Shown: in pieces, positions 1,636-36,497 of the stretch | How positions within the stretch are numbered: the stretch's first letter is position 1 | How the letters are laid out: every line of letters begins with the position of its first letter | DNA from: Candidatus Bathyarchaeota archaeon | Lineage (GTDB): Archaea; Thermoproteota; Bathyarchaeia; Bathyarchaeales; Bathycorpusculaceae | Length of the DNA stretch: 64,000 nucleotides | Assembly: GCA_963828195.1 (NCBI GenBank) | Contig: CAWHDT010000005.1 | Coordinates: 480,001 to 544,000, forward strand | Direction: 5' to 3' | Translations under genes and position numbers: made by a program | The notes under the pieces: model-generated | Database searches by the model: none | Told to the model about the DNA's origin: nothing | Seen by the model: only the letters and a program-made list of their open reading frames with translations

Positions 1636-1812
1636 ATTTTTAAGTTGCGACTTTTGCCCTGTGAAAGTTGCGACTTTCCGCTCTGGGTCTTTGCGTTTTG
1701 GGTTGCTTTTTTGGTTTGGGGTTTGAAGGGCTTGGCGAGCTGCGACTTTGGGATGGGCGGAATGCGACTTTGAATGTTGACTCTATGTAGGCGACATTGT
1801 CGGATATGGGCG
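1636..1812. repeat. Dispersed ~180-bp element, copy 1 (four GTTGCGACTTT-like boxes)
   Basis: Boxes start at 1644, 1667, 1739 and 1761. Aligns by eye with 18819-18956 and 36321-36497. Confidence 0.9.
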
Positions 1813-1931
1813 AATTCTCAGCAGCAACCCAGAACCCAAACGTCACAGCTAAAACACCCAACAAACCTGCAGAGGCTTCATCGGAAAACTTGAGCACTCA
1901 GTGCGGATTTAGATTCACACTATAGAATGCA

Positions 1932-1979
1932 CAGCCTCCTAAGTTGGGGTCAAGGGTTCAAATCCCGCCTTGCCCGCCA
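1932..1979 (+). pseudogene. Degenerate 3' half of tRNA-Arg(CCT), att-like remnant
   Basis: cagcct-CCT-aagttgg...gggTTCAAATccc...gcccgCCA. No matching 5' acceptor strand upstream. Confidence 0.75.
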
Positions 1980-2152
1980 AGAGCCAATTTAGGCAATTTC
2001 AGCCAATTATGCGGCCTTCAAGTCCTCAACGAAATACTAAGAGCATCCATAATGTTTCCTGGCAACTATTTCTTCAACGTAATAATCCTTAACAAATCTA
2101 GGCTTAAATACCCGAAAATGACATTCCATAAACAACAGAAGATGAAGACCGG

Positions 2153-3019
2153 GTGCCTGCTTTAGAACTGAATAATATTTCTTCAGGTTATAATAAGCAG
2201 TTAGTGTTGCATGATATTAGCTTTAAACTGCAAGAGCCATCAATCTACGTTGTTTTAGGGCCAAACGGCGTGGGCAAGACAACTTTGTTTAGGACAATCG
2301 CGGGTATTCTGGAGCCATTTAGCGGCAATATTCTCCTTGACGGACAAAACCTAACTAGCTCACGTGAAGCCCGAAAAAAGCTGAGTTTCTTCTCCCAGAA
2401 CGCAATGCCTGAAGAGATGACAGTGTACCAGGCACTCAAGTTCTATTCCAACATGGAGGGCGGAGACCCAGACAAGGCAATTGAATTGCTCGACCTCGGC
2501 GAACTGAGGGATAAACGATTTTCAGATCTTTCTCAGGGACAAAAGAAGAGGGCGTCACTAGCGAAAGTGTTTTTGTGCGAAAGAGACCTCTACCTATTAG
2601 ATGAACCCACGGCAAATCTGGACCCCGTAGTTTCAAAAGAAATTCGTGATATTATATTAAAGCTAAGCAAGGACAAAATGATTCTGTACTCATCCCATAA
2701 TCTTTATGAAGCCACCGACATCGGCACTTACCTGATCCTAATCAAAAATGGCTCAGTTTCAACGTTTGATAAAATCTCAAACATCAAACCCAAGAATTAC
2801 CGTGTAGGCATCAAAACCCAAACGGACATAACAAAAATTGTCGATGCCAAACGCGAGGGCGACTACTACGTCTTAAGCGTATCCAGCCCTCAAGAAGCAG
2901 GACTTACCCTCAAAAAACTCGTTGAAAAAGGCGTCTTAGTTACCGAAATGCGCCAATTAGATAATCCATTGCAGGAACTATTTGAAACACCCAGCACTCA
3001 AAACACAGTGAGGGCATGA
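2153..3019 (+). CDS. ABC-2 type exporter ATP-binding subunit
   Basis: GPNGVGKT Walker A, LSQGQ signature, LLDEPT Walker B, SSH switch. Confidence 0.9.
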   Translation: MPALELNNISSGYNKQLVLHDISFKLQEPSIYVVLGPNGVGKTTLFRTIAGILEPFSGNILLDGQNLTSSREARKKLSFFSQNAMPEEMTVYQALKFYSNMEGGDPDKAIELLDLGELRDKRFSDLSQGQKKRASLAKVFLCERDLYLLDEPTANLDPVVSKEIRDIILKLSKDKMILYSSHNLYEATDIGTYLILIKNGSVSTFDKISNIKPKNYRVGIKTQTDITKIVDAKREGDYYVLSVSSPQEAGLTLKKLVEKGVLVTEMRQLDNPLQELFETPSTQNTVRA

Positions 3020-3022
3020 GAA

Positions 3023-3704
3023 ATGAACAATACGTTGGTTTTTGTAAAGCGTAGCCTCAACCTAAGTAAAATACTGGCGGGGGTGGGAGTGGGTCTTGCA
3101 GGCCTCGGGATCTTTGTGATATTTACCCTATCTCTTCTCGTGGGAAGTTCAAGTGCGGCGGTCTTTGTCCTTCCGGTCTCATTTATGTCTCTTGCGCTTC
3201 TAATTTTTGCAACCCCGGTTACACTTCTTTACGTTTATGATAAGAACAACGGTGTGTTGGAGTATTTGCTTTCTCTCGGGTGGAATCAAAGCGATATCTT
3301 CAAGCAATACCTGAAAGCCGCTCTCCTCCTTGCACTAATCCTCTTCACAGGCGAAGCCGCCGCGATTCTGATTGCAGGTGCCATTGCGGGGTTAATGGCG
3401 GTCTTTGCTTTGGATTTGTTGATGATGTTTCTAACGGCATTTATGGGTTTTTCAGTGGTTTCGTTGGTTACTGTGGCAATGATGGCTTTTAGCACGTTAC
3501 AGAAGCAACGAGTGGGCGCTAACACTCCTCTCGGCATGGCGATTGGCGTCCCGTTCATATTTCCCACCTTTTACCTTTCTTTCCCTCGGATTCAGCCCAG
3601 AACTGATAATTTACCTATTGCTTTGCACTTTAGCCGCTGCCCTGTCAGTTGCGTTGCTGCTTCTCTCAAGCAGGCTTATTAGAAGAGAAAAAATGCTACC
3701 CTGA
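3023..3704 (+). pseudogene. ABC-2 type permease, frameshifted near 3575-3582
   Basis: Multi-TM protein with a DKNNGVLEYLLS motif. The hydrophobic C-terminus (SLGFSPELIIYLLLCTLAAALSVALLLLSSRLIRREKMLP*) continues in another frame to TGA at 3704. Confidence 0.75.
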
Positions 3705-3789
3705 AAAGTTACTATTGAATTTCTTGCGCTTCACCAACTATGACGGTAAATATTCTGGCCACTTAGCGCATACCTACCCGAGGGTTAAG

Positions 3790-3818
3790 CGAGGGTTCAT
3801 AGCTATCCCCGCCCGCCA
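3790..3818 (+). repeat. Highly degenerate tRNA-Arg 3'-end remnant
   Basis: cgagggttca...ccccgcccgcca matches the T-arm and acceptor part of 4741-4789. Confidence 0.65.
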
Positions 3819-3860
3819 TTGCCTTTTCGGCTGCTTTCCTTTTGTAAAAGCGCTTAGAGT

Positions 3861-4352
3861 TCATTTAATGATGGAATTGAGGTAACTATGGTATTCTTTA
3901 ACGGCATCATCCGGAAAAGGGGTGACTACTACGATTTCTTTAACTTTGGCAAGTTCCCTGTCCAGCGAGTAGACAACGGTTGTACCTAGGCTTCTAGCAA
4001 GCGAAATCAGGTATCCGTCCCAAGATTCTACGTCATACGTCGAGGCGTAATCTAGAGCGTCTGTAGCCAGATGTGTCGAAATATGAGGATAAAGAGCGGC
4101 TGATCCAGATGTGAGGATTCCCTCCATTATCTTCTTGGCGGTTAATCTTGGAACTCTTAAGTATCGAGTAGTTATGTGGTAAGCTCCCAGAATGGAGGAA
4201 ACTGGAATTACCGCTCTCCTTTTTTCCTTTAATGCTTCTGAAAGAAAGGTTATGCTGTAATCTTTGAGAGGGTTCTCGAAACAGCAGGGAACCACAACGC
4301 CAATATCGACGACGCCTTCAGGACAAGCCAAGCTTTCTTCTCGCGTATTCAC
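3861..4352 (-). CDS. vapC: PIN-domain (VapC-like) toxin, copy 1; real start probably TTG at 4331
   Basis: N-terminal VVD, central SWDGY and C-terminal YSLDREL PIN motifs. Overlaps the upstream AbrB-type antitoxin. Confidence 0.85.
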   Translation of the reverse strand: MNTREESLACPEGVVDIGVVVPCCFENPLKDYSITFLSEALKEKRRAVIPVSSILGAYHITTRYLRVPRLTAKKIMEGILTSGSAALYPHISTHLATDALDYASTYDVESWDGYLISLARSLGTTVVYSLDRELAKVKEIVVVTPFPDDAVKEYHSYLNSIIK

Positions 4353-4611
4353 GGCTCATCCACTTCCAGCTTTCTGTAGACTGTTCAGTGAAAGCTTGTG
4401 CTTTAAAATTCCTTGAAAGGTTCTCCCAATCTTGCACTTTTTTTTCTACATCTTTTTTCAGTGGTTCAAGTATGACTCGTTGGCCATCGATTCGCAGTGT
4501 TATTTGTCCCCCTTGCTTAATTCCAAAAGTTTCTCTTACTCGGGCAGGCAACACCATCCTTCCCTGTTCAGCCACTTTTATGGCATTTTCCATCTTTACC
4601 ACCACAAACAA
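4318..4611 (-). CDS. vapB: AbrB/MazE-fold antitoxin, copy 1
   Basis: KVAEQGRMVLPARVRETFGIKQG swapped-hairpin signature. Confidence 0.88.
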   Translation of the reverse strand: MFVVVKMENAIKVAEQGRMVLPARVRETFGIKQGGQITLRIDGQRVILEPLKKDVEKKVQDWENLSRNFKAQAFTEQSTESWKWMSREYARRKLGLS

Positions 4612-4740
4612 TATCTTTCCTCAGGGCTATAAACTTTTTAACTCAGCAGTAACACCTTTTGGTTACTACATAGTCATTGCCGAATCGCTGTCATTTGATA
4701 TGGTAACGATATTGTTCGGCTTTTGAGATTAAATTGCATT

Positions 4741-4789
4741 CAGCCTTCTAAGTTGGGGGTCGAGGGTTCAAATCCCTCCCCGCCCGCCA
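4741..4789 (+). pseudogene. 3' half of tRNA-Arg(TCT) from anticodon arm to CCA, orphan att-like copy
   Basis: cagc-ctTCTaa-gttg anticodon arm, gaggg-TTCAAAT-ccctc T-arm, cccgccc-g-CCA. No D-arm or 5' acceptor strand. Confidence 0.85.
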
Positions 4790-4913
4790 CGAATACACCA
4801 CGCCCAGTGAGAGGGTTTTACATGCGTTTTCTGGAAGAGTAGATTTTTCTATGAAATGCCTCTGTTAATCCTTCATCTTTTTATAGTTATGTGTCGAGTA
4901 GAACGCGATACTC

Positions 4914-6938
4914 TTGTCTGTTAAGTTCAAAGCCAATAGCGAGGGTCAACAACCCGATTCATTAATTTTCAATTCTAATGATAATATTTGTGAAAAATGC
5001 ACTCCGAATAAAGCTGTCGAATCATTCACAAAAAAAAGTGACACACCCAAAACGCAGCCGCCCCCCGCAAAAAACGTTGAGAAGAAAATGCGGAAAAGGC
5101 GCTTGTCCGAATTATCAAATGCAGGTTCGACCCAAAGTTTTGAGCTTGAAGAGGATACAACAAATGGAAAAGTTACGCACAAGTATTTTTGCAGTTTTTC
5201 CGATCCTTACGACATAAAACGACTAATTGAAACTAAGTCATTTTCAAATTTTGAAAGTTTCAGGCTGCATTTGGAAGCCCGCGAAATGAAGCGCTCCGCC
5301 CAAATTGATAGATTAATTTCTGCGGACTCTCTGCGAGCGAAAATAGTGCCATACAGTTTTCAGATGCAAATTGCTCTTCAAGTGATAAACGAAATGAAGG
5401 GAAACGCTATACTTGCTGATGAAGTTGGCCTCGGCAAAACAATCGAGGCTGGCCTTATCATGAAAGAACTGATTTTAAGAGATGAAATAAACTCAATTCT
5501 AATTGTAGCTCCTAAAAGTCTGTTGTCGCAGTGGAAAACTGAAATGACTGAGAAATTTGGGGAAAACTTCTCTATAGCCAATAACCATAAAGTGGATCTG
5601 TGTACCGCCAAGAGAATAATTTGTTCACATAACCTTATTGCAAGGAAATATGATGAGTTTGCAAGTAGAACTTGGGATTTAATTGTAGTAGATGAAGCTC
5701 ACGCTTTTAGAAATCCTCACAGTAAGGGACGAAGCTGCTTGGCGGGGCTTAGCAAAAATCATTTCTTGCTTCTTACCGCCACACCCTTATGCAATAAACT
5801 AACCGACTTGTACAGCATTGTGGATTTAATTCAACCAGGCATCTTTGATAGTGAACGCTTGTTCGTTTCTCGATTTGCTGAAGACTCAAAGAGCCGGGTG
5901 GTAAAGCCGGAGGGAGCATTGCAGTTAAGGCAAATACTTCAAAATGTCATGTGCCGCACTCGAAGAGAACAAACCGGCATGTCGTTCACAAAACGATACG
6001 TTGACTCCAGAACACTCGAGGCCGACGAAAGAGAACGCGAATTCATTGACAAAGCCACCGAATACCTAAGAGACATTTACAAAAATAATTTCAAAACAAT
6101 TGAAACCTTAATGAGGGAAAATCCAACCAGAAAAATAACCGATTCCCAAAGCAAAGCAATCCTAGTCTTTCAGGCAATTGCTCTTCAGCAGTCATTTTCA
6201 AGTTCCCCCGAAGCCTCAATCGAATCATTACTAAGGAGACAGCAGCGCTTCCCTTCAGAAATCCAAGCTACAAATAAACTGATTGAAATTGCAAAACAGG
6301 CCAAAAGCTCAAAAATTAAACTCCTAAAACAGGTCCTCAATGAAATCCCAAATGAGCAAGCGCTAATATTTTGTCTAAGGAGAATTACAGCTCACAAGCT
6401 TAAAGAAATGCTATATCAGGAATTCGGCAGAGCCGCCGTCTTTTTAGGTGATATGAGCCAATGCGAAAGAGACAGCGTGATTTCATCATTCAAAAAAGGC
6501 GAAGTCAAATACCTCATCGCCACTGACTCTGCAGCAGAAGGATTGAACCTTCAGAATTGCTGTGTAATGTTCAATTATGATTTGCATTGGAACCCCATGA
6601 AAATCGAGCAGAGAATCGGGCGAATCCACAGATACAAACAGGACCGCGACGTCACTGTCTTCAACCTGAGCATAAAAGACACCATCGACGACTATGTCCT
6701 TCATATTCTATACCAAAAAATCGACTTATTCACCATGACTATCGGCAAAATGGAAACTGTTTTAGCTGAATTGAAAGAAGGGTCGCAGGACATTCAAAAA
6801 ACAATCATGGCCATTTTACTAAGAAGCAATTCCCACATTGACATTAGACGAGACCTCGAAAAACTTGCTGCCGACTTGAGCGTTTCGCGGAAAAATCAAG
6901 AGTTAGCAGAAAAATTTTCGCAAGGCGTTCTTGATTGA
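4914..6938 (+). CDS. SNF2/RapA-family SF2 helicase (YqhH-like)
   Basis: LADEVGLGKT, VVDEAH, LTATP, AEGLNLQ and WNPMKIEQRIGRIHR motifs. Confidence 0.92.
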   Translation: MSVKFKANSEGQQPDSLIFNSNDNICEKCTPNKAVESFTKKSDTPKTQPPPAKNVEKKMRKRRLSELSNAGSTQSFELEEDTTNGKVTHKYFCSFSDPYDIKRLIETKSFSNFESFRLHLEAREMKRSAQIDRLISADSLRAKIVPYSFQMQIALQVINEMKGNAILADEVGLGKTIEAGLIMKELILRDEINSILIVAPKSLLSQWKTEMTEKFGENFSIANNHKVDLCTAKRIICSHNLIARKYDEFASRTWDLIVVDEAHAFRNPHSKGRSCLAGLSKNHFLLLTATPLCNKLTDLYSIVDLIQPGIFDSERLFVSRFAEDSKSRVVKPEGALQLRQILQNVMCRTRREQTGMSFTKRYVDSRTLEADEREREFIDKATEYLRDIYKNNFKTIETLMRENPTRKITDSQSKAILVFQAIALQQSFSSSPEASIESLLRRQQRFPSEIQATNKLIEIAKQAKSSKIKLLKQVLNEIPNEQALIFCLRRITAHKLKEMLYQEFGRAAVFLGDMSQCERDSVISSFKKGEVKYLIATDSAAEGLNLQNCCVMFNYDLHWNPMKIEQRIGRIHRYKQDRDVTVFNLSIKDTIDDYVLHILYQKIDLFTMTIGKMETVLAELKEGSQDIQKTIMAILLRSNSHIDIRRDLEKLAADLSVSRKNQELAEKFSQGVLD

Positions 6939-8398
6939 GCACGGAATATTCGAACTCAAAGATTCGTACATTTATTGGATCGTTCGTTAAATCCAAAAAT
7001 GGAGAGTTAACTGAGCAGTCAAACGAAGTTTTTAGAGTAAAATACCCAAACCAAACAAGCAGCACAGAGTACACTTATGAGCCTTCAGTAGCACGAGAGA
7101 AAAAAATTCTTTTAATGGCGCCGGGAAGTCCAACGTTCCAGCACATTTTGGATGAATGTTTAGAAAACGGTGTTCTATGCCAAATTAAAGTAAACCCGAA
7201 AGGCGAATTGGAAACACTACTCAAAAACAACTTTAAAGATTCACCTTTTGATTGCCAAGATTGCCAAAAAGTGACAGCTGGCGATAAATCGTTTAGTGTT
7301 TGCGAGAAAACCCAACAGTGTTACCACCAAATAAACAATGGAAAAATCGTTTCAATAAAAGTTATTAAAAAAGAGCCAGCGAGATATTATCGACTTTATT
7401 TCTCCGCAGCATTCCGCAACAAATCGAGGCCAAGGAATGAAGAGTTGATTACATTTTTGATGGATGAAGCTGGAAATATTGTTGACGCTGAGGATTTTTA
7501 CGGAAAAAATATTTTGGATAATGAAGCGTTAGAGATTCAAGATTTTAAGGCGAAGCTTAACCCAGAGGTGTTTGATGAGTTAAAGTCTGTTGCAGACAAA
7601 AAAATGGCGGAAATTATAAAGGAAAAGTTGGTTCTCTTTGATTTACCTCTCAGTAAGGAGAAGGATGCTAAACTAAGAAGCTTCGATAAAAGACTTCGGC
7701 GGGAACGTCTTGAACAGGCAATTAATAGTAAATACGATTTTGACTCGCAGAAGTGGCAAGCTACCTACGAAGCGCTCATGAGAAAAGAAGAAGAATCACT
7801 AGCAACCTGCATAGACATAAAATTCATCAATCTGCTTGTAATCAACACAAATAAGGTTACCTTTGAAATAAGCCTTGATAACAACGCAACCGTACATTCA
7901 TCAATCATCTTAGGCATTAATCATACCGCGGAAGTTAACTGCCCAATCTGCCGAAATGATTTCTCTGAAGGTTATGCAACCGAAGATTCGTTCTACTGTT
8001 GCGGAAACTGCATTAGACAATCCATTGAGACAGGAAAAATTTATTCAAAAAAAGTGGCCCTAAAACTGGACGAAACATTGAATGAATATTTTGAGCAAGA
8101 CGAAGGTTTTGTCTGCTCAGTCTGCGGCAAGAGACACAGTCGCTTACTGGAATTCAAATGCAGCTATGACGATTCAAGCGTATGCATTTTTCATTATGAT
8201 TATTGCGATTTTTGTGGTGAAATTTTCTCAAAACTTAACTTAACTTCCACGCATGAATTCCAGCGAAAACTATGTCCAAAACACACCGTCAAATGTGAAA
8301 ACTGCAAAGCAGTTATTGGAGTTGACGAAGTCAAGGTTTGTCAAGTCACTGGCGAAAGACTTTGTGTCAACTGCATGGATAAGTCGAGGATGCATTAA
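6935..8398 (+). CDS. Helicase partner protein with coiled coil and Cys-rich multi-Zn-finger C-terminus (YqhG-like position)
   Basis: Overlaps the helicase stop. Many CxxC/CxxH pairs (CQDC, CPIC, CGNC, CSVC, CDFC, CPKH, CENC, CVNC). Confidence 0.8.
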   Translation: MSTEYSNSKIRTFIGSFVKSKNGELTEQSNEVFRVKYPNQTSSTEYTYEPSVAREKKILLMAPGSPTFQHILDECLENGVLCQIKVNPKGELETLLKNNFKDSPFDCQDCQKVTAGDKSFSVCEKTQQCYHQINNGKIVSIKVIKKEPARYYRLYFSAAFRNKSRPRNEELITFLMDEAGNIVDAEDFYGKNILDNEALEIQDFKAKLNPEVFDELKSVADKKMAEIIKEKLVLFDLPLSKEKDAKLRSFDKRLRRERLEQAINSKYDFDSQKWQATYEALMRKEEESLATCIDIKFINLLVINTNKVTFEISLDNNATVHSSIILGINHTAEVNCPICRNDFSEGYATEDSFYCCGNCIRQSIETGKIYSKKVALKLDETLNEYFEQDEGFVCSVCGKRHSRLLEFKCSYDDSSVCIFHYDYCDFCGEIFSKLNLTSTHEFQRKLCPKHTVKCENCKAVIGVDEVKVCQVTGERLCVNCMDKSRMH

Positions 8399-8399
8399 G

Positions 8400-9333
8400 A
8401 TGGGGACTTTGAGGTTTAACGGGGTTTTAGAAGAAATTAAAGAGCGATACCCAAACATCGATTTAATGCAGTTTCTACAACAGAAACTTCAGATTCCCGA
8501 CTACAAGGCAGAAAAATTGGCTGCCCGTATAGAAAAACAATTCTTCCAAAAAGAAACAAACAAAACTGAGCGAAAATATGTAAGAACAGTGTCGCAAAAA
8601 AACAGTAAATCCATGATTCCTTCAGAAACACGCGCTTATTCAGTTGATTGTCTTTCGGGGAAGGAATTTGAGTTTTTTATTGAGTGGCTGTTTGAAGAAC
8701 TAGGGTACGAGGTCCATTCGGAAAAGCATTCAACTTGTTTCGGGGTTGACTTTGTGGCTGCAAAGGATGGCGAGATTGTTGCCATTCATGCCCGAAGGTA
8801 TCCTAAAACTTACATGGTATCCGATTCTATTCTTTTAATGTCGCAGAACGCAAAGTGTACCTTTGGGTGTCAGAGGTCGATTGTATTAATCACCGCATAT
8901 TTTACGCCCCAAGCAATAGATGACGCTAAAAGGTTAAATGTCGAACTTTGGGACAAAGATAGCCTTACATGCAAAATTGATGAGGTAAGGAAAAAAGCTA
9001 CAGTGAAAGGGCAGTCTCGTTTTCCCCAGTTTACGGGGTCGCTTGCTCAAACTCTTTTAAAGTTTGAAGAAGCAGGAGATTTCATTATAGAACCCAAGGC
9101 AGCGGGAAAATTCGATTTGCATTTGACGGGAGTAAAATTTCCCTCTTTTAACCTTTCAAGTCCATGCTAATGAAGTCACTCGATGCGTCTACAGAATTAA
9201 AAACAACGGACCAGTTGGAGAACATGACGGCACAGTTTTGATTAACAGCGAGCGCGACAACAAAAGAATCGGCCCAAATGACACCAATGCATACGCATCA
9301 ATAATTCAGTATCTTGAGACATTTTTCACCTAA
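8400..9333 (+). CDS. Mrr-family (type IV restriction) endonuclease-like protein, frameshifted near 9140
   Basis: GKEFEFFIEWLFEELGY..GVDF..VAIHARRY..LITAYFTPQA..VELWD is the Mrr_cat pattern. The C-terminus continues in another frame to TAA at 9333. Likely start is ATG at 8400. Confidence 0.75.
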
Positions 9334-9461
9334 CCACCGATCACTGTAGCGGAGCTCAAATCTCTTCGTGCGCTTCCGTTTGCTCAATTTTGCCCATTGA
9401 AATTGTAAAATGCGGTGAAGGCTCTGCAAGGTTTTTATTTGCTCCTTGCAATGTAAAGTTG

Positions 9462-10349
9462 ATGTCAGCTAAACAGTTTTTCATAGACCGCTACGCGGAG
9501 CTCGGTTGGGCATTTCGGGAAGTTAACCTGAAGCAGTCAATCCGAATAAACCAAACCAACGTTAAAGGAAAAAATCTTCCCGACAGGCTCCGCGGCTTAG
9601 GCGTCGAACTTGAGAAAATCCCTTTTCTGGCGGCGGGGTGGTGGGTTGGAGAATCCAAAGTTTCCGTCGGCGCCACAGCCGAGTACCTACTGGGCATGTA
9701 CTCTGTTCAGGAGGCAGCAGCGCAGATTCCCGCCGCGCTCTTCACTGCTTTAAGAGGCAAAACGGTGCTTGACGCTTCAGCGGCGCCGGGCGGAAAAACC
9801 GTTCAGCTGGCGGACTTGATGGAGAACAGCGGAGCCATAATTGCTTTGGATGAAAACAAGCAGCGGTTGGTGGCAATGGCGAACCATTTGGAGCGCTGCC
9901 ACGTCAGCAACACAATCGTTTACAATCTGGATGCCAGGCAAGCTGCAACACTGAACCGCGTCTTTGACCGCATACTTTTGGATGTTCCCTGCTCGGGCAA
10001 CTTTGCCTCTGACAGCCAATGGCTTTACCGCAGAACCCTCGCGGACGTGGAGCGGAACGCGAAGGTGCAGCGGGAAATTCTCTCTGAAGCTACAAAATGT
10101 TTAGCGGCTGATGGCGAAATGGTTTATTCTACTTGTTCACTGGAGCCTGAGGAAGACGAGTTGAACATGGATTGGGCTGTCAAAAACTTGGGGCTACAAA
10201 TTCAACCCATTGACTGCATCGGGGTAGAAGGGTTAACTGAGGTTTTCGGCAGAAAACTTGACGCTCAAATTGCAAACTGCAGAAGAATCTGGCCACAAAA
10301 AACACAGGGCTTCTTCGCGTGCAAACTGAAAAAGGCGGCGGCGAAATGA
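9462..10349 (+). CDS. NOL1/Nop2/Sun RNA m5C methyltransferase
   Basis: AAPGGKT, LLDVPCSG and YSTCS catalytic motifs. Confidence 0.92.
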   Translation: MSAKQFFIDRYAELGWAFREVNLKQSIRINQTNVKGKNLPDRLRGLGVELEKIPFLAAGWWVGESKVSVGATAEYLLGMYSVQEAAAQIPAALFTALRGKTVLDASAAPGGKTVQLADLMENSGAIIALDENKQRLVAMANHLERCHVSNTIVYNLDARQAATLNRVFDRILLDVPCSGNFASDSQWLYRRTLADVERNAKVQREILSEATKCLAADGEMVYSTCSLEPEEDELNMDWAVKNLGLQIQPIDCIGVEGLTEVFGRKLDAQIANCRRIWPQKTQGFFACKLKKAAAK

Positions 10350-10822
10350 GACCTTACGAAGTTTTTGCTTCCCGTTTCGGCGGCAGAGTCCAGTTTAACC
10401 CAGAGTTTATTCTTGAAAAAAATCAACGCTTCTACCTTTTGAATCCGCGCCTGAAAAAGGTTGGGCAAGAAGACTTTTTTTACGCTGGCTTGTACCTTGG
10501 CAAAGTGGGCAAAAACGGGGGTTTCTTTCCGAGCTTCAACCTGCTGAACTTGCTTGTTGATGTTGCGGCGAACAAAATTGTCGTCGATCGGAAGGCAGCT
10601 TGGCTTTTCATCTGCGGAAGAGATGTTTTTAGGGAGGGGATTGTGAAGGTGATGGGTTCTAAGCGGAGAGGCGAGGCGGTTTTGGTTCTGAATGAGTTTG
10701 GTGAGTGTCTTGGATTTGGCTCTTTAATGGATGGCTTAAATGAAGGTGGTGGTAAGGTTGCTGTCAGGAATGTGCTGGATGTCGGCGATTTTCTGCGGAG
10801 AGAACGAAGAGGAAACTTCTAA
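10346..10822 (+). CDS. Nip7-like PUA-domain ribosome biogenesis protein
   Basis: Translationally coupled to the Nop2 homologue. WLFICGRDVF..LVLNE..CLGFG..DVGDFLRRE is a Nip7/PUA pattern. Confidence 0.75.
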   Translation: MRPYEVFASRFGGRVQFNPEFILEKNQRFYLLNPRLKKVGQEDFFYAGLYLGKVGKNGGFFPSFNLLNLLVDVAANKIVVDRKAAWLFICGRDVFREGIVKVMGSKRRGEAVLVLNEFGECLGFGSLMDGLNEGGGKVAVRNVLDVGDFLRRERRGNF

Positions 10823-10979
10823 CTCTATAAGCTGGTTCGGCTGAACGCAAAAAAAATTGGGTGACAGCTTGATTGCCCCAGAAATTTTTGTTTTGTGTAG
10901 TGAACGTTTATTCAAACAATTTAGGGATAAACTTATATATGTTTATGTTTTAAGTGGATTCTCAAACATATGATTTAAT

Positions 10980-12452
10980 ATGGTGAAAGTCATGGATGAA
11001 CAAGTAAAGAAAGCAATTGAAACCCTCAAATCAAACAATATTCGATGGGTGCACTCTGCATTCGTCGATGTAAGAGGAATACTTCAAGACATGGTTCTGC
11101 CCGCCCGAGAATACATAAGCGGCTCAGCATTCACCGACGGCATCGGCTTCGACGGATCTTCAGTACGCGGCTTCAAATCAATCGAAGAATCCGACATGAT
11201 CTTTATGCCTGACGCCAAAACCTTATCGATAATGCCCTGGGTAACTGATGAGGCGCAGAAAAGCGCAATCGTACTCGGCGACGCATTGGAAGCTTCAGGG
11301 GGAAAAGAACCCTCCGTTGCTTGCCCAAGAGGCTACGTTGCAAAAAGAGCAATTAAAGCGGCCAAGGACATGGGGTACACTGGAATTTTCGCTCCTGAAC
11401 TTGAACATTTCGTGTTTACGTCAATTGACCCCACCAAAATGACCTGGGACCTTTGGGCAGCTCCAAAAAGCGGAGAAGGAGATGCTTGGGGTGCGCCAAG
11501 GGTTGTGCCAAACTCGCCAGAAGTAACTCCCGGCGGCTTCATACTCAGACCTAAAGAAGCTTACTATCGAACTCCGCCCGAAGACACAACGGTTGAGTAC
11601 CGGAACGAGGTTTCACAGGTTTTGGAAGATAACTTTGGCTTAACAATCGAGAAGCATCACCACGAAGTAGCAACTGTCGGCCAAGTAGAAATCGACTACA
11701 AATACGGTGAACTGCTGGAAACCGCTGACCGAGCACTCTTCTTCAAGTTCGTCGCCAAAAACATCGCTAAGAAACGCGGCTTAATCGCCACTTTCATGCC
11801 GAAACCCATCTACCTTGACAACGCCAGCGGCATGCACGTTCACTCAAGCATATGGAAAGACGGGAAAAACGCAATGTATGACGCAGAAGATGACTACTGT
11901 GAACTCAGCCAAACTGGCAGATACTACGTCGGAGGCATACTTGCCCACGCTAAAGCTTTAACTGCAGTGTGTTGCCCAACTGTGAGCAGCTACAAACGCT
12001 TAGTGCCAGGCTTTGAAGCGCCAATTTACGTTATGTGGTCCAGAGCCAACCGATCTGCACTTGCCCGCATCCCTATGTACTATAAGGGTCCTTCTCATCA
12101 GGCGCAAAAAAGAGTTGAGTACCGAGGCGTTGACCCATCATGCAACCCATATCTGGCATTCGCATGCATTATGATGGCTGGTTTCGACGGAATCAAAAAG
12201 AAACTTGATCCAGGCGACCCAGTTGACGAAGACGTTTACAAACTAAGCAAAGCAAAACGCAAAGAACTAGGCATAAAAGAGCTCCCCACCACGCTCAAAG
12301 GCGCGCTAGATGAAATGGAAAACGACGACGTCATAAAAGAAACCTTAGGCACCCACGTGTTCGACGCATTCATTGAACTTAAAACAAACGACTGGAACCA
12401 ATACTGCCTCTACGTTTCGCCTTGGGAAATAATGAAGTACCTCGACTACTAA
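10980..12452 (+). CDS. glnA: Glutamine synthetase type I (with GSI-beta-like insertion)
   Basis: FDGSS, HHEV..GQVEI, FMPKP..NASGMH, RLVPGFEAP, NRSALARIP and EYRGVDP motifs. Confidence 0.95.
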   Translation: MVKVMDEQVKKAIETLKSNNIRWVHSAFVDVRGILQDMVLPAREYISGSAFTDGIGFDGSSVRGFKSIEESDMIFMPDAKTLSIMPWVTDEAQKSAIVLGDALEASGGKEPSVACPRGYVAKRAIKAAKDMGYTGIFAPELEHFVFTSIDPTKMTWDLWAAPKSGEGDAWGAPRVVPNSPEVTPGGFILRPKEAYYRTPPEDTTVEYRNEVSQVLEDNFGLTIEKHHHEVATVGQVEIDYKYGELLETADRALFFKFVAKNIAKKRGLIATFMPKPIYLDNASGMHVHSSIWKDGKNAMYDAEDDYCELSQTGRYYVGGILAHAKALTAVCCPTVSSYKRLVPGFEAPIYVMWSRANRSALARIPMYYKGPSHQAQKRVEYRGVDPSCNPYLAFACIMMAGFDGIKKKLDPGDPVDEDVYKLSKAKRKELGIKELPTTLKGALDEMENDDVIKETLGTHVFDAFIELKTNDWNQYCLYVSPWEIMKYLDY

Positions 12453-12642
12453 GTCAAGGTTTTCCATTCTTTTCTTTTTTAATTGCATCTATGAGATAAA
12501 ATAAAAGTTAGTATTTTTCGAAATGAAGTTGATTTTTCTCTAAAAAAAGTTTTACACTAAATGTTTAGTGCTGAGTGATACTTCGTATTTGACTCCGCAA
12601 AAGCTGTGAAGTTTTTTGGAAAAAGCAAAATAAGAAAAAATT

Positions 12643-12960
12643 TTAGGTTGCGGGCGTCTCTTTGAAGACTTCTTCTACGTCATGTTCCGGTTCTGTTTTC
12701 TCTTCAGGCATTTCAGGTTGTTTTTCTTCTTCTTTTTCTGCGTCTATGCTAAAAATATAGACGACAAACGAGACAACTGCGAGTACTAAGTACGGCAACA
12801 TTGCAACTATGATGGTGTAAGCAATGAAGGCTGCGGGGGCGGATGACGTATACTGCAGCTTATCTAACTCGTAGCTTATCACACCGGCTAAAGCTGTAAA
12901 AACAATGAATACTAAACCAAATATCAATGCAATTTTGTTAATTATTTTCCAGCTGTTCAT
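12643..12960 (-). CDS. Small two-TM membrane protein with acidic tail
   Basis: Two hydrophobic helices. Upstream purine-rich SD-like sequence. Confidence 0.7.
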   Translation of the reverse strand: MNSWKIINKIALIFGLVFIVFTALAGVISYELDKLQYTSSAPAAFIAYTIIVAMLPYLVLAVVSFVVYIFSIDAEKEEEKQPEMPEEKTEPEHDVEEVFKETPAT

Positions 12961-13252
12961 TTTTTTGCCTCAATATCTATTTGCCTTACGCTTGCTTACC
13001 TTTTAAAGCATTGCTTTTCGAAAAACAAAGCCAGATTCAGCATAATTTTAGGTTGCTATGAATTCAAGTTCAAACCAGCGGTTCAAGGCAGGGAGCGCAG
13101 CGAAGCAGGTTAAATTTTAGAATACCAGCCCATTGCCCGATTAAACAATCAGCCATTTCCAGCGGCACAATCGTTTAAACGTTAAATATATTTATGCTTA
13201 AACATCTATTAAATAAACAGTCAATCAAAAGCTGATTGACAGGTGAAATTAA

Positions 13253-14617: not shown

Positions 14618-14754
14618 GCCCTAGCGGCTGTTTGCCTTTTTTTATCTTTGATTTTTTTGTGCCTTAAAAGCATCTATGCTTTTTATGAACAAAGAAGTTT
14701 CTGTATTTCTAATTCATAAGAGCTATTATCGGGGTTGCAGATGCATGCATGTGA

Positions 14755-15057
14755 TTGATTATGCGACGGTCCAAGCTTGAACTTTATGTTGCCGTTCTGA
14801 ACGTTGTTGCCATCCGTGGACCTCTTAATATTACTGGGTTGCTGCTTAGAGCAAGGCTGAACCATGTGCAGCTAAAACCCATCTTAAACAATTTAATAAA
14901 TAAAGGGGTTATTCAAGAGCAACATCTGGAAAATGACTCTATTGTTTATGTATTAACCTCTTTGGGGCAGCGGCTGTCAAAGCAGTTTAAACAGGTAGAA
15001 GAATCCAAATGGTCTCTTGATGATCTGCCAGAACAAACCATCGCTGCCCTTATTTGA
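14755..15057 (+). CDS. Winged-helix transcriptional regulator (archaeal RRSKLE-type)
   Basis: MRRSKLELYVAVL..LNNLINKGVI..YVLTSLG wHTH pattern. Confidence 0.75.
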   Translation: MIMRRSKLELYVAVLNVVAIRGPLNITGLLLRARLNHVQLKPILNNLINKGVIQEQHLENDSIVYVLTSLGQRLSKQFKQVEESKWSLDDLPEQTIAALI

Positions 15058-18133: not shown

Positions 18134-18730
18134 TTAGTATCTTGGTCTGTAGCCGCCGCCGCTTCCGCCAGAACCTCTTCGGTCTCTGTCTCTGCCGCCG
18201 CCGTAACCGCCGCCACTGCCGCCGCTTCCGCCTCGTCTATCTCTTCCGCCGTAGCCGCCTCCACCGCCTCCGTATCCTCTGCCTCCGCCTCTTCCGCCGC
18301 CGCCTCTGTATGGTCGTCTTTCTTGTTCGTATGCTTTGCTGGATACGTTGTTTTCTGTGTTTACTTCTACGGTGAGTGGTTCTTTTGCGGGTTCGAGTTT
18401 GCCGTATTTGCCGATGTTTAAGCGTATGTTGCCTTTGAATAGTGTGACGTAGCCGTTTTCCACGCGGATTGTGTCGTTTTCGTTTACTTTTTCGATGTTG
18501 TCATCCCAAAGTGTAACGTATACTACGCCTGTTTCGTCGCCGACGAGTGCGTCGCTTACTTTGTGGGGTGAGCCATCTCTGCCCATGGGGATTTCGCGGA
18601 TTTCTGTTTTAGATACTACTTTGGCCGTAACGTTAACCGCTTTTGATTGTGGGGTTAAGTCTCCGACTTTTGCTTCTACTGGTGTCTTTTTGTTTTCGAA
18701 AAAACCTTCAACAGCCAATCTGTTCAACAT
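18134..18730 (-). CDS. ssb: Single-OB-fold ssDNA-binding protein with Gly/Arg/Tyr-rich tail
   Basis: VGDETG..VTLWD..ENGYV.LFKG..RLNIGKYG is the crenarchaeal-type SSB OB fold. Confidence 0.9.
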   Translation of the reverse strand: MLNRLAVEGFFENKKTPVEAKVGDLTPQSKAVNVTAKVVSKTEIREIPMGRDGSPHKVSDALVGDETGVVYVTLWDDNIEKVNENDTIRVENGYVTLFKGNIRLNIGKYGKLEPAKEPLTVEVNTENNVSSKAYEQERRPYRGGGGRGGGRGYGGGGGGYGGRDRRGGSGGSGGGYGGGRDRDRRGSGGSGGGYRPRY

Positions 18731-18818
18731 CCTAGATTTGTGGTTCTAAGGAAAGGTACATGTTCTCTGCACTTAAGTTTTTCGCTTTGCGGATTTTTTG
18801 AGTTGCGTTTTTTTGGGG

Positions 18819-18956
18819 ATTTTTAAGTTGCGACTTTTGGGCTGGCGTAAGTTGCGACTTTCCGCTCTGGGGCTTTGTGTTTTGGGTTGTTTTTTTGGTT
18901 TGGGGTTTTAGGGGCTTGGCGGGTTGCGACTTTGCTACGGGCGGTTGCGACTTTTT
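18819..18956. repeat. Dispersed element, copy 2
   Basis: GTTGCGACTTT boxes at 18827, 18851, 18923 and 18944 with the same T/G-rich spacer. Confidence 0.9.
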
Positions 18957-33396: not shown

Positions 33397-34263
33397 TTAG
33401 GCTGCTTTAGGTTTAGCTTTCTCGACCGCACCGCTTAAGCTTGACATTTCCGCGTTTGCTTTTCTTATCAGGTCGCCAATTGTTTCTTTGGTAGGTATGG
33501 CGGCGCCGACAGCTAATGCAACGGCTTTTTGATGTGCCATCTGCAATAAGGGTTTAATTGTGTCTTTCGATGGATAAGATATGCCTAGTGCTAACGCAAA
33601 GGCTTCTTGGTTGCTTTGCTCGACGCTTCGTCTTGTTGCATCAACATCAACCCTCAGCTGGTCACCGGTAATCATTAAGCCATCATCAAAAACTGCGCGC
33701 ATCGAAATGCCGAGTTCAACAGCTTTGATGCCTAGTTTTGATAGGACCCCAGCGAGGCGCTCGTTGATTTCTTCGCCCCTGCGAACAACCAAAGTGTCTT
33801 TGCTGACCCAGACGCTTCCAGACTCGATTCGTGTAGGCAAACCAACAGCGTTTAATTGGCTGATGAATGGGCCTGGAGGTTGACCCGTGTTGCCAGATGG
33901 AACAACCACGTCGTTAGCGGCGATGTCGCCTGACTTGGCGGTTGTTCTTACTTTGCCCCTTTCCAGCAGCAAAGCCAGTTTGAACGGGTTTAAGTCTGTG
34001 AACAGGTAAACGTTTGAGCCGTCCAAGTATTCCTCAAGTTTCTTTAAATCTTCTTGATTCATCTCTTCAATAGCGAGCTTCATCAAAGTATTCTTTAAAA
34101 CGCGGAGGTACACTTTGCCAGCCATACTTTTCTTGATTTCTTGAAGTTGAGAAGCACGGACCTTCTGCAGGCTAGCGATGCCAATGGATTTGTACTCTTT
34201 CATTATGCTTTTTATCGAATCTACTTGGCTTGATTTTTCGTCTAATACTTGTTGGGACGGCAT
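33397..34263 (-). CDS. rpl10: 50S ribosomal protein L10/P0
   Basis: KNTL, FTDLNPFKL, AKSGDIA..V..GNTG.PPGP motifs. Confidence 0.96.
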   Translation of the reverse strand: MPSQQVLDEKSSQVDSIKSIMKEYKSIGIASLQKVRASQLQEIKKSMAGKVYLRVLKNTLMKLAIEEMNQEDLKKLEEYLDGSNVYLFTDLNPFKLALLLERGKVRTTAKSGDIAANDVVVPSGNTGQPPGPFISQLNAVGLPTRIESGSVWVSKDTLVVRRGEEINERLAGVLSKLGIKAVELGISMRAVFDDGLMITGDQLRVDVDATRRSVEQSNQEAFALALGISYPSKDTIKPLLQMAHQKAVALAVGAAIPTKETIGDLIRKANAEMSSLSGAVEKAKPKAA

Positions 34264-34278
34264 GATTTTTCTTCTCTG

Positions 34279-34929
34279 TCACGGTTTAATTTTTACTGGC
34301 TCACCCATAGATGTTTTGATAAAAGCGTACTTTACGTTTTTCAAGCCACGCTTAAGTTTTCCATCTAAAACACGAAGAACCGTCATGATGTTATCGACAA
34401 GTTCTTCATCCTTCATCTGTTGAGTGCCAACTGAAACTTGAATGATCGGTTGATTGCGCATTCTCACAACCACGGTTTTGCGGTGCTTACTTATTATAGC
34501 TGCAATGTCAGCGTTCGGCGGAACAGGAATAGGCATTTTTCCTCTAGGTCCCAAAACTGGACCAAGAATTCTGCCTACCAGCGGCATCAAGGGTGCTTCG
34601 GAGATGAAAACGTCATATTCGGTGGCAAGCTTGCGAAGTTCCTTCTTTTTACCGTTCAACGTATCTAAGTCAGCGCGTTCTATAACGTGGTCAGCTTGTG
34701 CGTTTTTTGCTTTAAATGCAAATTCTCCAGAAGCAATGACACATATCTTGTTGGGCTTTCCAGTTGCGTGAGGAAGCTCGACGACTTCTTGGATTTTGCC
34801 TTCTGGCGCCTTCATATCGATCTCTACAATATCTAAGATCATATCTACGGTCTGGTTGAATTTTTTTTCGCCAGACTTCGCCTTTGCCTGTTTAACTGCT
34901 TCTGAAATTGTTTTGTTGTCTAGGGGCAT
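34279..34929 (-). CDS. rpl1: 50S ribosomal protein L1
   Basis: KFNQTVD, LGPRGKMP and KTSMG motifs. Confidence 0.97.
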   Translation of the reverse strand: MPLDNKTISEAVKQAKAKSGEKKFNQTVDMILDIVEIDMKAPEGKIQEVVELPHATGKPNKICVIASGEFAFKAKNAQADHVIERADLDTLNGKKKELRKLATEYDVFISEAPLMPLVGRILGPVLGPRGKMPIPVPPNADIAAIISKHRKTVVVRMRNQPIIQVSVGTQQMKDEELVDNIMTVLRVLDGKLKRGLKNVKYAFIKTSMGEPVKIKP

Positions 34930-34987
34930 TTTTAAGCCTCGTGCCAATGAGGGATTAGAAACCCATTATAAAAATATTCGCTTATCA

Positions 34988-35476
34988 TTATTCGGTACCA
35001 AATAGCTGTTCGTAGTTGCCAGCATCAATGTCTTTTTGCACTTCACGGGGGTCTTTGCCTTCAACAGTAACGCCTAAACTAACGCAGGTTCCAAGCATCT
35101 CTTTGGTTGCCTTCTTCAGTGTTGGCGATAAAAGCTCAGGACGCTTAATTTTTGCGATGCGAACCATCTGCTCCATAGACAAATCCCCTACTTTAACAGT
35201 GTTGGGTGTTCCTGAACCCTTCTCTATTTTCAGTTCAGCGACGATTAGGGCTGAAGCGGTTGGGGTGCCTATGTTTACGTCAAAGGTTTTGTCTTCAGTG
35301 TTAACGCTAATTTTTACTGGAACTTTCATTCCAGCATAGTCTTTGGTTAGCTCGTTAATTTTGTTGACGATAGCCATAATGTTGACGCCTAATGGGCCAA
35401 GAGCAGGACCTAACGGTGGACCTGCATTGGCTTGTCCGCCACTTACGAGCAACTCTACAACTTTTTTCTCGCTCAT
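34988..35476 (-). CDS. rpl11: 50S ribosomal protein L11
   Basis: GGQA.AGPPLGPALGPLG and GTCVSLG motifs. Confidence 0.97.
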   Translation of the reverse strand: MSEKKVVELLVSGGQANAGPPLGPALGPLGVNIMAIVNKINELTKDYAGMKVPVKISVNTEDKTFDVNIGTPTASALIVAELKIEKGSGTPNTVKVGDLSMEQMVRIAKIKRPELLSPTLKKATKEMLGTCVSLGVTVEGKDPREVQKDIDAGNYEQLFGTE

Positions 35477-35492
35477 TTTTTTCACCAGTTTA

Positions 35493-35963
35493 TTACTTTG
35501 CTTTTTCTACTAGTTTTACATAGTCTGAATGTACCGTGATTGGTAAGGTGAATGTTGCCTCAAGCAATTCAAGGGTTACTTCGCCTTTTGCCTTGTCTAA
35601 TCTTGTGATTTTGGCTCTCATGCCTTTGAAAGGTCCACCAGTTATTTCGACGACGTCATCTTCGTTGAGGTCTTCCATGACTGGTTTTCGGACGATGTAG
35701 CGTTCTATCTCGCTGAAGCTTACTAGCCCAGGGATTCTTGAGCGTACATGCCTCAACCCCGTGATGGCTTCTTCCACCAAATGTGGACCGTCCGCTTCCA
35801 CGAACACGTACCCTTTTAACGTGTCTGGCACAAGAAGAGCTTTTATTGGAATATGATTCATTTCAACTTTTGATGCAATCAATCGGGCAACATTTCGTTC
35901 TTGTCCAGTAGTGGTTTTTACAACGAAAATTTTTGCTTGCGATTGCTCTTCTTTCTTGTCCAT
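35493..35963 (-). CDS. spt5: Transcription elongation factor Spt5/NusG
   Basis: TTGQE..KGYVFVEA NGN domain and GPFKG KOW motif. Confidence 0.97.
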   Translation of the reverse strand: MDKKEEQSQAKIFVVKTTTGQERNVARLIASKVEMNHIPIKALLVPDTLKGYVFVEADGPHLVEEAITGLRHVRSRIPGLVSFSEIERYIVRKPVMEDLNEDDVVEITGGPFKGMRAKITRLDKAKGEVTLELLEATFTLPITVHSDYVKLVEKAK

Positions 35964-35979
35964 GAATTCAGGTTTCCTT

Positions 35980-36177
35980 TTAAGATGATGTTCCTGCTAC
36001 GCCTGCGCCGCCTATTGCGTATGCTAAGAGTTTAATTACGAAACCGATTAAACCAATTGCGCCGATGCCTAAGAGGCTGATTTTTATGGATAGCATGAGT
36101 TCTTCTCTTCCTGGTTTTACAGCTAACTTTAAGGTTCTTCCCGCTTGACTTAACCAAGATTTTATTCCCATATGCAT
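35980..36177 (-). CDS. secE: Protein translocase SecE/Sec61-gamma
   Basis: RTLKLAVKP.REE..IG.IGFVI. Conserved position before spt5. Confidence 0.93.
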   Translation of the reverse strand: MHMGIKSWLSQAGRTLKLAVKPGREELMLSIKISLLGIGAIGLIGFVIKLLAYAIGGAGVAGTSS

Positions 36178-36320
36178 CGCACACTCAAGATTTCATTTAT
36201 GAATAATAAACGTTGCTGTAACTTAGTTTAAAAAATGGATTATCAGCACCTTTAAAGCTTCTCTACAAGGCTAACTATTTTGTGGTTAAACTTTCTTGAA
36301 AGCTTTTTTTCCGGGTTTAG

Positions 36321-36497
36321 ATTTTTAAGTTGCGACTTTGCCGGGACGTAAGTTGCGACTTTCAGGCTGGGTTCTTTGCGTTTCGGGTTGCTTTTTTGGT
36401 TCAGGCTTAGGTTCTGGTTGCCCGTTGCGACTTTGGGATGGGCGGGTTGCGACCTTCCATGTTGGCTCCATGTTGAAGCTATTGTCGGTTTTGGGCG
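36321..36497. repeat. Dispersed element, copy 3
   Basis: Boxes at 36329, 36352, 36424 and 36446. The tail (atgttg.ctc.atgt..attgtcgg.t.tgggcg) is shared with copy 1. Confidence 0.9.

Follow-up and report, generated by a model that had tools for sequence, protein, structure and literature searches.

The window analysed here is a 64,000-nt stretch of contig CAWHDT010000005.1 (positions 480,001 to 544,000) from a Candidatus Bathyarchaeota archaeon (assembly GCA_963828195.1), and it holds three copies of an intergenic element of about 180 bp in which one short sequence box recurs four times. All three copies lie where the original prediction, made from the sequence of the window, had placed them, and they share one orientation, with box 1 facing a minus-strand gene of the core machinery. 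Pfam identifies these neighbours as EF-2 (copy 1), a single-stranded-DNA-binding protein (SSB; copy 2) and a gene row with Spt5 and ribosomal proteins (copy 3), as had been proposed; the 62-amino-acid (aa) open reading frame (ORF) next to copy 3 that could be secE has no Pfam match.

At the head of each copy, an A/T-rich octamer (GATTTTTAAG-like) leads into box 1 (AAGTTGCGACTTT), and this 13-mer returns 23-24 bp on as box 2. A G/T-rich central module (TCTTTGCGTTTTGGGTTGCTTTTTTGGTTTGGGG) comes next; box 3 stands 72 bp past box 2, and box 4 another 21-22 bp past box 3. In copies 1 and 3 the element continues into a tail of two CATGTTGA-type repeats that closes with ATTGTCGG..GGGCG. All boxes share the core TGCGACTTT, and boxes 1 and 2 carry the near-palindrome AAGTTGCGACTT. 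In this arrangement, a site of 9-13 bp is repeated four times directly on a plus strand that is 72% G+T. The core positions reproduce the box spacings first read in the window (Table 1). The proposed helical phasing of the boxes holds approximately, with 23-24 bp corresponding to 2.2-2.3 turns; strict phasing does not, and the TT dinucleotides lack the 10-10.5-bp period of phased or curved DNA, peaking at 7.25, 8 and 12 instead.

Table 1. Positions in the window of the three element copies, their parts and the features next to them.
Feature	Position (nt)	Strand	Remark
Copy 1, four-box element	1635..1812	+	read in sequence and by alignment
Copy 1 A/T-rich octamer	1635-1644	+	
Copy 1 box 1	1642-1654	+	AAGTTGCGACTTT
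Copy 1 box 2	1665-1677	+	
Copy 1 T-rich central module	1688-1727	+	
Copy 1 box 3	1739-1749	+	
Copy 1 box 4	1761-1771	+	
Copy 1 tail	1772-1812	+	two ATGT-type half repeats, final GGGCG
Copy 1 cores (TGCGAC)	1646, 1669, 1741, 1763		spacing 23/72/22
Copy 2, four-box element	18818..18955	+	tail absent, likeness stops past box 4
Copy 2 boxes 1/2/3/4	18825-18837 / 18849-18861 / 18923-18933 / 18944-18954	+	
Copy 2 central module	~18873-18909	+	
Copy 2 cores (TGCGAC)	18829, 18853, 18925, 18946		spacing 24/72/21
Degenerate fifth box, GAGTTGCGTTTTT	18800-18812	+	between copy 2 and SSB promoter region; direct reading
Copy 3, four-box element	36320..36502	+	box 4 is GTTGCGACCTT; tail up to GGGCGCGGCG
Copy 3 boxes 1/2/3/4	36327-36339 / 36350-36362 / 36424-36434 / 36446-36456	+	
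Copy 3 cores (TGCGAC)	36331, 36354, 36426, 36448		spacing 23/72/22
EF-2 gene, N-terminal 477 codons in window	1..1431	-	Pfam GTP_EFTU, EFG_III; directed away from copy 1
EF-2 own conserved promoter region	~1440-1540		promoter-proximal block kept in congeners
tRNA-Arg(CCU)-like 3' fragment	1932..1970	+	directly past copy 1; blastn to tRNA-like locus on contig C1 and to 4741-4789
Second tRNA-Arg(CCU)-like 3' fragment	4741-4789		direct orientation to the first
Ssb-like OB-fold single-stranded-DNA-binding protein gene	18134..18730	-	Pfam; directed away from copy 2
Spt5 (35493-35963), L11, L1, L10 gene row	33397..35963	-	Pfam; directed away from copy 3
62-aa ORF between Spt5 and copy 3	35989-36174		Pfam: nothing matched

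A BLAST search with copy 1 against its own genome (2.83 Mb in 9 contigs, code G000; the window belongs to contig C5) retrieved 23 near full-length copies, which lie on eight of the nine contigs and on both strands and are 77-88% identical to copy 1. Beyond these, the search gave only short partial modules, including the central module alone. The family is thus far larger than the three copies originally counted, and neighbouring copies on C5 are separated by 5.4 to 64 kb, which makes the regular distance of 17.2/17.5 kb between the window copies a coincidence. When the 23 copies are aligned, their likeness begins sharply at the A/T octamer and stops at GGGCGG. The boxes are 96-100% conserved, whereas the spacers between boxes 1 and 2 and between boxes 3 and 4 drift, as does the second half of the central part. 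Measured from core to core, box 1 and box 2 are 23 (10 of 23 copies) or 24 bp (13 of 23) apart, box 2 and box 3 are 72 bp apart in 22 of 23, and box 3 and box 4 are separated by 22 (19 of 23) or 21 bp (4 of 23). Further copies therefore keep the fixed spacing, the loss of which had been named in advance as a refutation, and because it holds across the 23 copies the prediction survived this test.

The enrichment of the boxes is equally apparent from their counts. TGCGACTTT occurs 57+52 = 109 times on the two strands, compared with an average of 12.4 per strand for 9-mers of the same composition, among which it ranks 2 of 3763. A box-pair pattern, defined as two exactly matched boxes 8-18 nt apart, gives 24 matches in this genome and 0 for the reversed control. 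By contrast, the ends of the element are unremarkable: an inverted match of the first against the last 30 nt reaches at most 2-7 nt in all 23 copies, and the longest string common to both flanks averages 5.9 nt versus 5.1 nt in shuffled sequence, being T-rich and inconsistent at element boundaries that are themselves approximate. Without terminal inverted repeats and target-site duplications, the element is not a classic miniature inverted-repeat transposable element (MITE), in agreement with what the window had suggested.

Going outwards from box 1, the first supported gene is encoded on the opposite strand at 19 of the 23 copies, with its start 50-350 bp from that box. The 19 genes were identified by Pfam, or by orthology to Pfam-typed genes, unless marked here as read by eye. 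They include translation genes (EF-2, EF-1alpha, L44e and L3, the first gene of a large ribosomal-protein row) as well as RpoB, TFE, Spt5-L11-L1-L10, SSB, proteasome alpha, PAC2 and an Hsp20-like gene followed by L15/SecY. Others encode a thioredoxin-like protein, a CBS protein, a GT2 glycosyltransferase, a winged helix-turn-helix (wHTH) protein, DUF5615 and an RNase-H-like protein, and the remainder are GcvH (by eye) and a secreted-looking ORF of 348 aa. As a whole the neighbour set is functionally coherent, consisting of translation, transcription, replication and proteostasis genes. On the tail side, genes stand in either orientation and include an ABC transporter, toxin-antitoxin (TA) modules, cas6, cas4-cas1, a DNA methylase and an Argonaute-like ORF (by eye).

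The association of the element with particular genes extends to related genomes. Of 81 genomes searched in the genus, 10 (this one included) have the box pair, with 24 (here), 10, 10, 9, 7, 5, 2, 2, 2 and 1 matches, and none of the 81 has the reversed control; the span of the pair is nearly always 34-35 nt. At 19 of the 45 sites in the nine relatives, the ORF on the box-1 side is orthologous (80-98% aa identity) to a gene so placed here: SSB at three sites, the TFE locus at three, EF-1alpha, the L15 row, the GcvH locus and DUF5615 at two each, and EF-2, Spt5, L3, proteasome alpha and the wHTH gene at one each. Thirteen left ORFs from the relatives' other sites were typed with Pfam, which returned RpoB, TFE, L22, RpoH, thermosome, aIF1, aIF2alpha, Hsp20 and EgsA and matched nothing in 4 of the 13; RpoB was met at four of the relatives' sites. 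The L22 locus of the present genome has a two-box version in which box 1 is degenerate.

Six further Bathyarchaeia metagenome-assembled genomes (MAGs), found by scanning the whole collection with the pattern and lying outside the genomes that defined the gene set, provided an independent check. Here 26 of 45 sites precede genes of the same list, and the gene is divergent in 25 of these 26, which include aIF1 and TFE (four sites each), Spt5 and EgsA (three each), and proteasome alpha and RpoB (two each). Taken gene by gene, the element recurs in as many as 11 genomes (TFE being the one with 11), and it stands in front of the same genes across at least 16 Bathyarchaeia genomes. Among the 80 stretches listed by the collection-wide scan, 67 are Bathyarchaeota/Bathyarchaeia MAGs, and ten are single bacterial matches, nine of which span only 30-32 nt. 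Three loci (L181, L193 and L206) bear a bacterial (Limnocylindrales) record title that is seemingly at odds with their content, which appears to be that of genome G093 of the archaeal genus. Copy number, strand bias and neighbours, which the prediction had proposed to survey in this genome and its relatives, thus describe a large family in fixed orientation before the same genes in 15 other species. How such a locus differs between genomes is visible at SSB, where G019 and the present genome have in common the proximal promoter block and the box pair and differ in linker length and in everything past box 2; SSB orthologues in three other genomes likewise have an upstream box pair.

Where a promoter can be recognised, the box pair lies upstream of it. 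At five aIF1 loci it directly precedes a canonical TTATATAT box, itself 30-36 nt before the ATG, which puts the pair between about -87 and -52 relative to the inferred start site. This region is the usual location of archaeal activator sites. The EF-2 upstream regions of the congeners (26 regions and that of G062) have in common a proximal A/T-rich block and a hairpin-containing block, and in this genome and G062 the element is present beyond the promoter block. Judged from these sequences, the element is an addition upstream of an existing EF-2 promoter. Read by eye, the EF-2 upstream regions retrieved from congeners (loci L032-L057) also contain, with or without the element, a block of ~45 nt with a CTACA...TGTAG hairpin (aaactacatggaaagtgagtttgtagcctattaactttatggca; window ~1505-1550), which may be an EF-2 promoter or leader element.

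The element is built from parts that also occur in other combinations. Relatives have the box pair alone, the box pair with central module and box 3, the four-box unit with tail, and longer versions, and in some of them the box pair and central module are followed by quite different short tandem repeats. In this genome a fuzzy pattern finds the central module, often with TTTGCAGGTTGCGT, at 21 further places, compared with 1-3 for shuffled patterns; an nhmmer profile built from the 23 copies added eight matches and is too narrow for diverged modules. Past these central modules stand other repeats with a period of ~10 bp (AAAGATA, CCGTT, AAAGTCGA and TTGTGT types), and the module itself sometimes lies behind a hairpin-containing repeat. 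The thermosome gene has a TTGTGT-type unit upstream here and a four-box unit in G093. The four-box element thus belongs to a broader range of modular upstream units found in the genus. Soil and peat contigs that cover window positions 1-20000 are short and break at the element, and many match only 1688-1727, with other flanks.

Several additional repeats were seen in the course of this comparison. Examples of the central module in G000 are C4:79001, C5:17848, C5:949536 (which adjoins a tyrosine-recombinase gene), C5:698038 and C8:178773, and two central modules are followed by small genes that start MPLT... and look AbrB-like by eye. One dispersed repeat consists of a TTTGTGGC...GCCACAAA-type hairpin followed by TAGTAGGTAGGTCTATAGG and often stands directly before a central module; another is a GAAAGAACAACAACACC...GTTGTTCTTC hairpin unit. 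Examples of these two repeats lie at C5:419961, C3:381363 and C3:67362. A search for gene starts at the 'catatttgtg...' repeats beside the central module found no consistent ORF.

The two sides of the element behave very differently between genomes. At shared loci, the gene-side flank (1.8 kb) reaches a tblastx coverage of 0.57-1.0 in 25 of 25 cross-genome comparisons, whereas the tail-side flank gives no coverage at all in 20 of the 24 evaluable comparisons and 0.05-0.6 in the other four. The island borders that had been proposed from the window are therefore real. An all-versus-all comparison of flanks gave 89 gene-side/gene-side pairs, 42 tail-side/tail-side pairs and 2 mixed ones, and the tail-side pairs often join different loci: cas6 adjoins the DUF5615-locus element in G062 and G019 but the CBS-locus element here, and a tRNA-Arg(CCU)-like sequence lies past the Spt5-locus element in G062, with its remnants past the EF-2 element here. 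Because some are multi-copy TA or provirus genes, not all tail-side matches are true exchanges. The elements themselves have a mean identity of 0.776 within this genome (253 pairs); between genomes the mean is 0.67 where the locus is the same (50 pairs) and 0.657 where it is not (1838 pairs). As far as sequence comparison can tell, the flank pattern together with this within-genome likeness fits exchange and gene conversion among the copies.

The variable DNA past the tails contains a number of mobile features. The two tRNA-Arg(CCU)-like fragments (Table 1) enclose an ABC-ATPase gene, a 219-aa ORF and a PIN-MazE pair; ARAGORN calls no whole tRNA in the window and Rfam none at the tRNA-Arg fragment, and a fuller tRNA-like copy on contig C1 near 424,900 also lacks an ARAGORN call. 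In one soil run, a contig connects 4788 to 9448 via 39 other letters and skips the segment with an SNF2 helicase and Mrr. The fragments and this contig join look like serial integration at a tRNA gene, and the position of the fragments by copy 1 suggests integration at a tRNA gene beside the element, not at the element itself. A segment of 849 bp with a PIN-domain gene and a MazE/AbrB-type antitoxin gene occurs twice (3806-4653 and 39218-40065, 98.8% identity), each time 2-3 kb past the tail of copy 1 or copy 3, and resembles a toxin-antitoxin cassette that is mobile or was duplicated recently. Directly past the tail of the copy on contig C6 lies a provirus or mobile remnant (L126:11153-16204) with a large terminase subunit, RNase H/RVT_3, a DDE transposase and small ORFs, and pieces from the C-terminal end of a related terminase gene stand behind truncated elements in G062 (SSB locus, two inverted copies) and G019 (proteasome locus). 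With introns allowed, ARAGORN identifies an intron-containing tRNA-Ser (G000 C1:159724-159853) ~200 nt past the tail of the L3-locus copy and on the same strand as the element; tRNA genes or fragments are also found past elements in G084, G047 and G062. Elsewhere in the window, two glutamine synthetase genes (10980-12452 and 13253-14617) lie on the same strand 0.8 kb apart.

We read the element as a clade-specific upstream module that is bound by a transcription factor and whose copies are kept alike and reshuffled as they recombine with one another, and we put the probability of this reading at roughly 50%. The four direct sites with core TGCGACTTT at fixed distances would be its working parts. 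A sequence-specific DNA-binding protein, probably assembled into paired dimers or a larger oligomer, would occupy the boxes and act on the recruitment of TBP, TFB and RNA polymerase at the neighbouring promoter on the box-1 side. The pair of boxes 1 and 2 with the A/T-rich octamer would form the conserved minimal unit, and the T-rich central module, boxes 3 and 4 and the tail with its two CATGTTGA repeats would be add-on modules swapped between elements. Recombination and gene conversion among the roughly two dozen copies would keep them alike within a genome, and the same recombination would exchange DNA on the tail side, which would explain why elements coincide with borders between conserved operons and accessory DNA. 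An upstream activating or regulatory element fits best because the boxes are invariant, the spacers drift, the orientation is fixed and the same genes carry it across species. Together with the conservation in 15 other species, these features also uphold the original proposal of a multi-site platform upstream of core genes, with protein binding as its presumed function. A protein-bound module is the simplest account of the box spacing, of the orientation to a stable and coherent gene set, and of the place upstream of the B recognition element (BRE) and TATA box where these are visible. In short, it most likely offers a common landing pad for regulation and, in addition, flags the junctions between conserved and variable stretches of the genome.

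A number of observations weigh against this interpretation. The EF-2 upstream regions of 26 congeners, read by eye, have no element, among them that of G019, which has box pairs elsewhere; because EF-2 has its own genus-wide promoter block and these 26 congeners do without the element, it would seem dispensable for such genes. Box 1 lies anywhere from ~50 to 350 bp from the gene start, and the SSB linker measures ~35 nt at one locus and ~85 nt at its orthologue, which argues against a strictly stereospecific activator. Four of the 23 copies have no supported divergent gene (two face small unsupported ORFs and two face none), the GT2, CBS and secreted-ORF neighbours are not obviously core machinery, and the 800 nt upstream of the 16S rRNA gene contain zero boxes. 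Because the relatives' sites were collected with an exact box pattern, the conservation of boxes between genomes is partly built in, and the higher similarity within the genome than at orthologous loci is equally compatible with repeated re-insertion of a mobile sequence. Two candidates for the binding protein were rejected on their phyletic pattern: the wHTH protein beside the C6 copy is encoded in 45 of 81 genomes compared with the 10 that bear boxes, and a 346-aa TFB paralogue is found in 81 of 81 and so does not track the box-bearing genomes.

A wider version of the regulatory reading, which we consider conceivable if doubtful, is that a lineage-specific 'general regulatory factor' lands on the element and that the element is at once a directional boundary, its copies serving as hinges of rearrangement, as an archaeal counterpart of eukaryotic promoters for ribosomal proteins and ribosome biogenesis with their insulator-type factors. 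Such a factor would coordinate the genes for RNA polymerase and its factors, translation factors, ribosomal proteins, SSB, and the proteasome and chaperones in soil Bathyarchaeia. The element would shield essential promoters from transcription out of the fast-changing accessory DNA on the tail side, the T-rich module would stop transcription in the opposite direction, and the gene-converted copies would act as hinges of genome rearrangement.

The likeness of copies within the genome could also be that of a non-autonomous mobile sequence or 'mobile promoter', a portable cassette copied in trans upstream of active promoters so that the same loci are hit or overwritten in each lineage. Its patchy presence (10 of 81 congeners, with the EF-2 element in G000 and G062 and not in G019) and the swapping of modules among copies would be expected of such a cassette, whose promoter might be formed by box 1 and the A/T octamer: read towards the gene these resemble a BRE/TATA pair, and CTTAAA is among the most enriched hexamers 30-45 nt before start codons in this genome. 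The reuse of similar promoter regions before unrelated genes is, moreover, a described phenomenon (PMC3575422). We nevertheless regard this origin as unlikely. The copies have neither terminal inverted repeats nor target-site duplications and no associated transposase or recombinase, and on the gene strand of copy 1 a T7 run lies ~30 nt downstream of the putative box-1 promoter start, ahead of the EF-2 promoter. Because the same genes keep the element in up to 11 genomes, in fixed orientation and with invariant boxes between drifting spacers, retention under selection is indicated rather than recent insertion. The behaviour of the tail side raises the related idea of a recombination or integration platform, in which the boxes are recombinase arm sites, or the element supplies homology for integrating elements, and accessory DNA moves at the tail end. 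Synteny stops at the tail in 20 of 24 comparisons and tail flanks reassort among loci; the DNA found there includes the tRNA-Arg 3' fragments, TA modules, the SNF2/Mrr island and cas genes, terminase fragments past the element (three sites, two relatives) and an entire terminase gene 1.3 kb past the C6 copy, and the soil contig connecting 4788 to 9448 lacks the SNF2/Mrr segment. The flank pattern is accounted for by homologous exchange among dispersed repeats without a dedicated enzyme, and the platform leaves unexplained both the fixed orientation to core-machinery genes and their functional coherence. The five tyrosine-recombinase (PF00589) matches in the genome come no nearer than 18 kb to a copy, and in viral contigs the box pair of the usual 34-35-nt span was not found, the 2 matches there both having 30 nt. 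The earlier suggestion of transposon ends or recombinase arms finds no support in these results, and we hold a dedicated platform to be improbable; a chromosome-organisation role, which had also been suggested, is conceivable.

Rather than a DNA site, the element could in principle be a multi-copy small-RNA gene on the plus strand that starts at the A/T octamer, ends at the T6 run of the central module and folds into a hairpin between boxes 1 and 2. The GUUGCGAC of these boxes is self-complementary with G-U pairs, RNAalifold predicts from the 23 copies one helix that joins box 1 to box 2 on the plus strand (-12.5 kcal/mol), the A/T-rich octamer is invariably ahead of box 1 and T runs follow; multi-copy RNA genes, furthermore, often evolve in concert. 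This one helix is all that is predicted, however, with -2.9 for the minus strand. A strand of 72% G+T leaves few pairing partners, boxes 3 and 4 have no extended complementarity, and Rfam gave no match, either at gathering thresholds in the whole window or at E<=1 in 1450-2150. Because the paired boxes never vary, covariation speaks neither for nor against the fold. The constant place upstream of the same protein genes, which the protein-bound module accommodates, would remain unexplained, and we judge an RNA gene very improbable. Small protein-coding ORFs were likewise dismissed: minus-strand ORFs of 85-96 aa span the copies, and their frame is not kept. They are non-coding because spacer differences of 1 nt (23 versus 24, 21 versus 22) put the boxes in different frames.

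Several known systems resemble the element in part. Archaeal upstream activating sites are bound by sequence-specific regulators, such as Ptr2/Lrp-type activators that use two sites upstream of BRE/TATA. Like these, the element presents short sites, repeated at set distances, immediately ahead of BRE/TATA (at the aIF1 loci); unlike them, it combines four sites and further modules in a unit of ~180 bp that recurs in ~23 copies per genome with ~80% identity over its full length, and it serves a candidate regulon of core information-processing genes. The bacterial BOX, Correia/ERIC and REP/REPIN sequences, dispersed intergenic repeats with regulatory effects, consist of inverted repeats or hairpins; most are found downstream of genes or between them, and they show no consistent orientation to a gene class. 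The element shares with them the short, modular, multi-copy intergenic units, the intragenomic populations and a possible role as recombination substrates, and differs in having direct repeats only, no terminal inverted repeats and a strict orientation. It also recalls the arms of lambda-type attP, with several spaced, here predicted, protein-binding sites in ~200 bp beside foreign DNA, but it has no integrase nearby, no core-type crossover site that we could identify, and dozens of copies, each tied to a promoter. Eukaryotic regulons for ribosomal proteins and ribosome biogenesis use the general regulatory factors Rap1, Abf1 and Reb1. The motif array upstream of translation and housekeeping genes, with a possible boundary or insulator role, is similar by analogy, without homology, and the rRNA operon is not included here. 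Highly similar upstream regions before unrelated genes of one genome are described as promoter reuse or putative mobile promoters in prokaryotes (PMC3575422). The element shares this property and differs in standing upstream of the genes' own promoters (EF-2, aIF1), in serving the same genes in 16 genomes and in marking synteny borders.

A limited literature search found no report on this element or on a shared cis-element for these archaeal core genes. We know of no shared cis-element for the genes of the archaeal transcription and translation machinery, and to our knowledge the way in which archaea coordinate the expression of the two machineries is largely unknown. If the element were merely a selfish repeat that tolerates positions upstream of promoters, its interest would be modest. 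As a regulatory module, it offers a testable handle: a 13-bp invariant site in a fixed four-site geometry before core genes in at least 16 uncultivated Bathyarchaeia genomes, through which a candidate master regulator could be identified. It would also be a regulatory repeat that doubles as the meeting point of conserved operons and variable DNA, and it may thereby be relevant to the way in which genome plasticity is directed away from essential genes.

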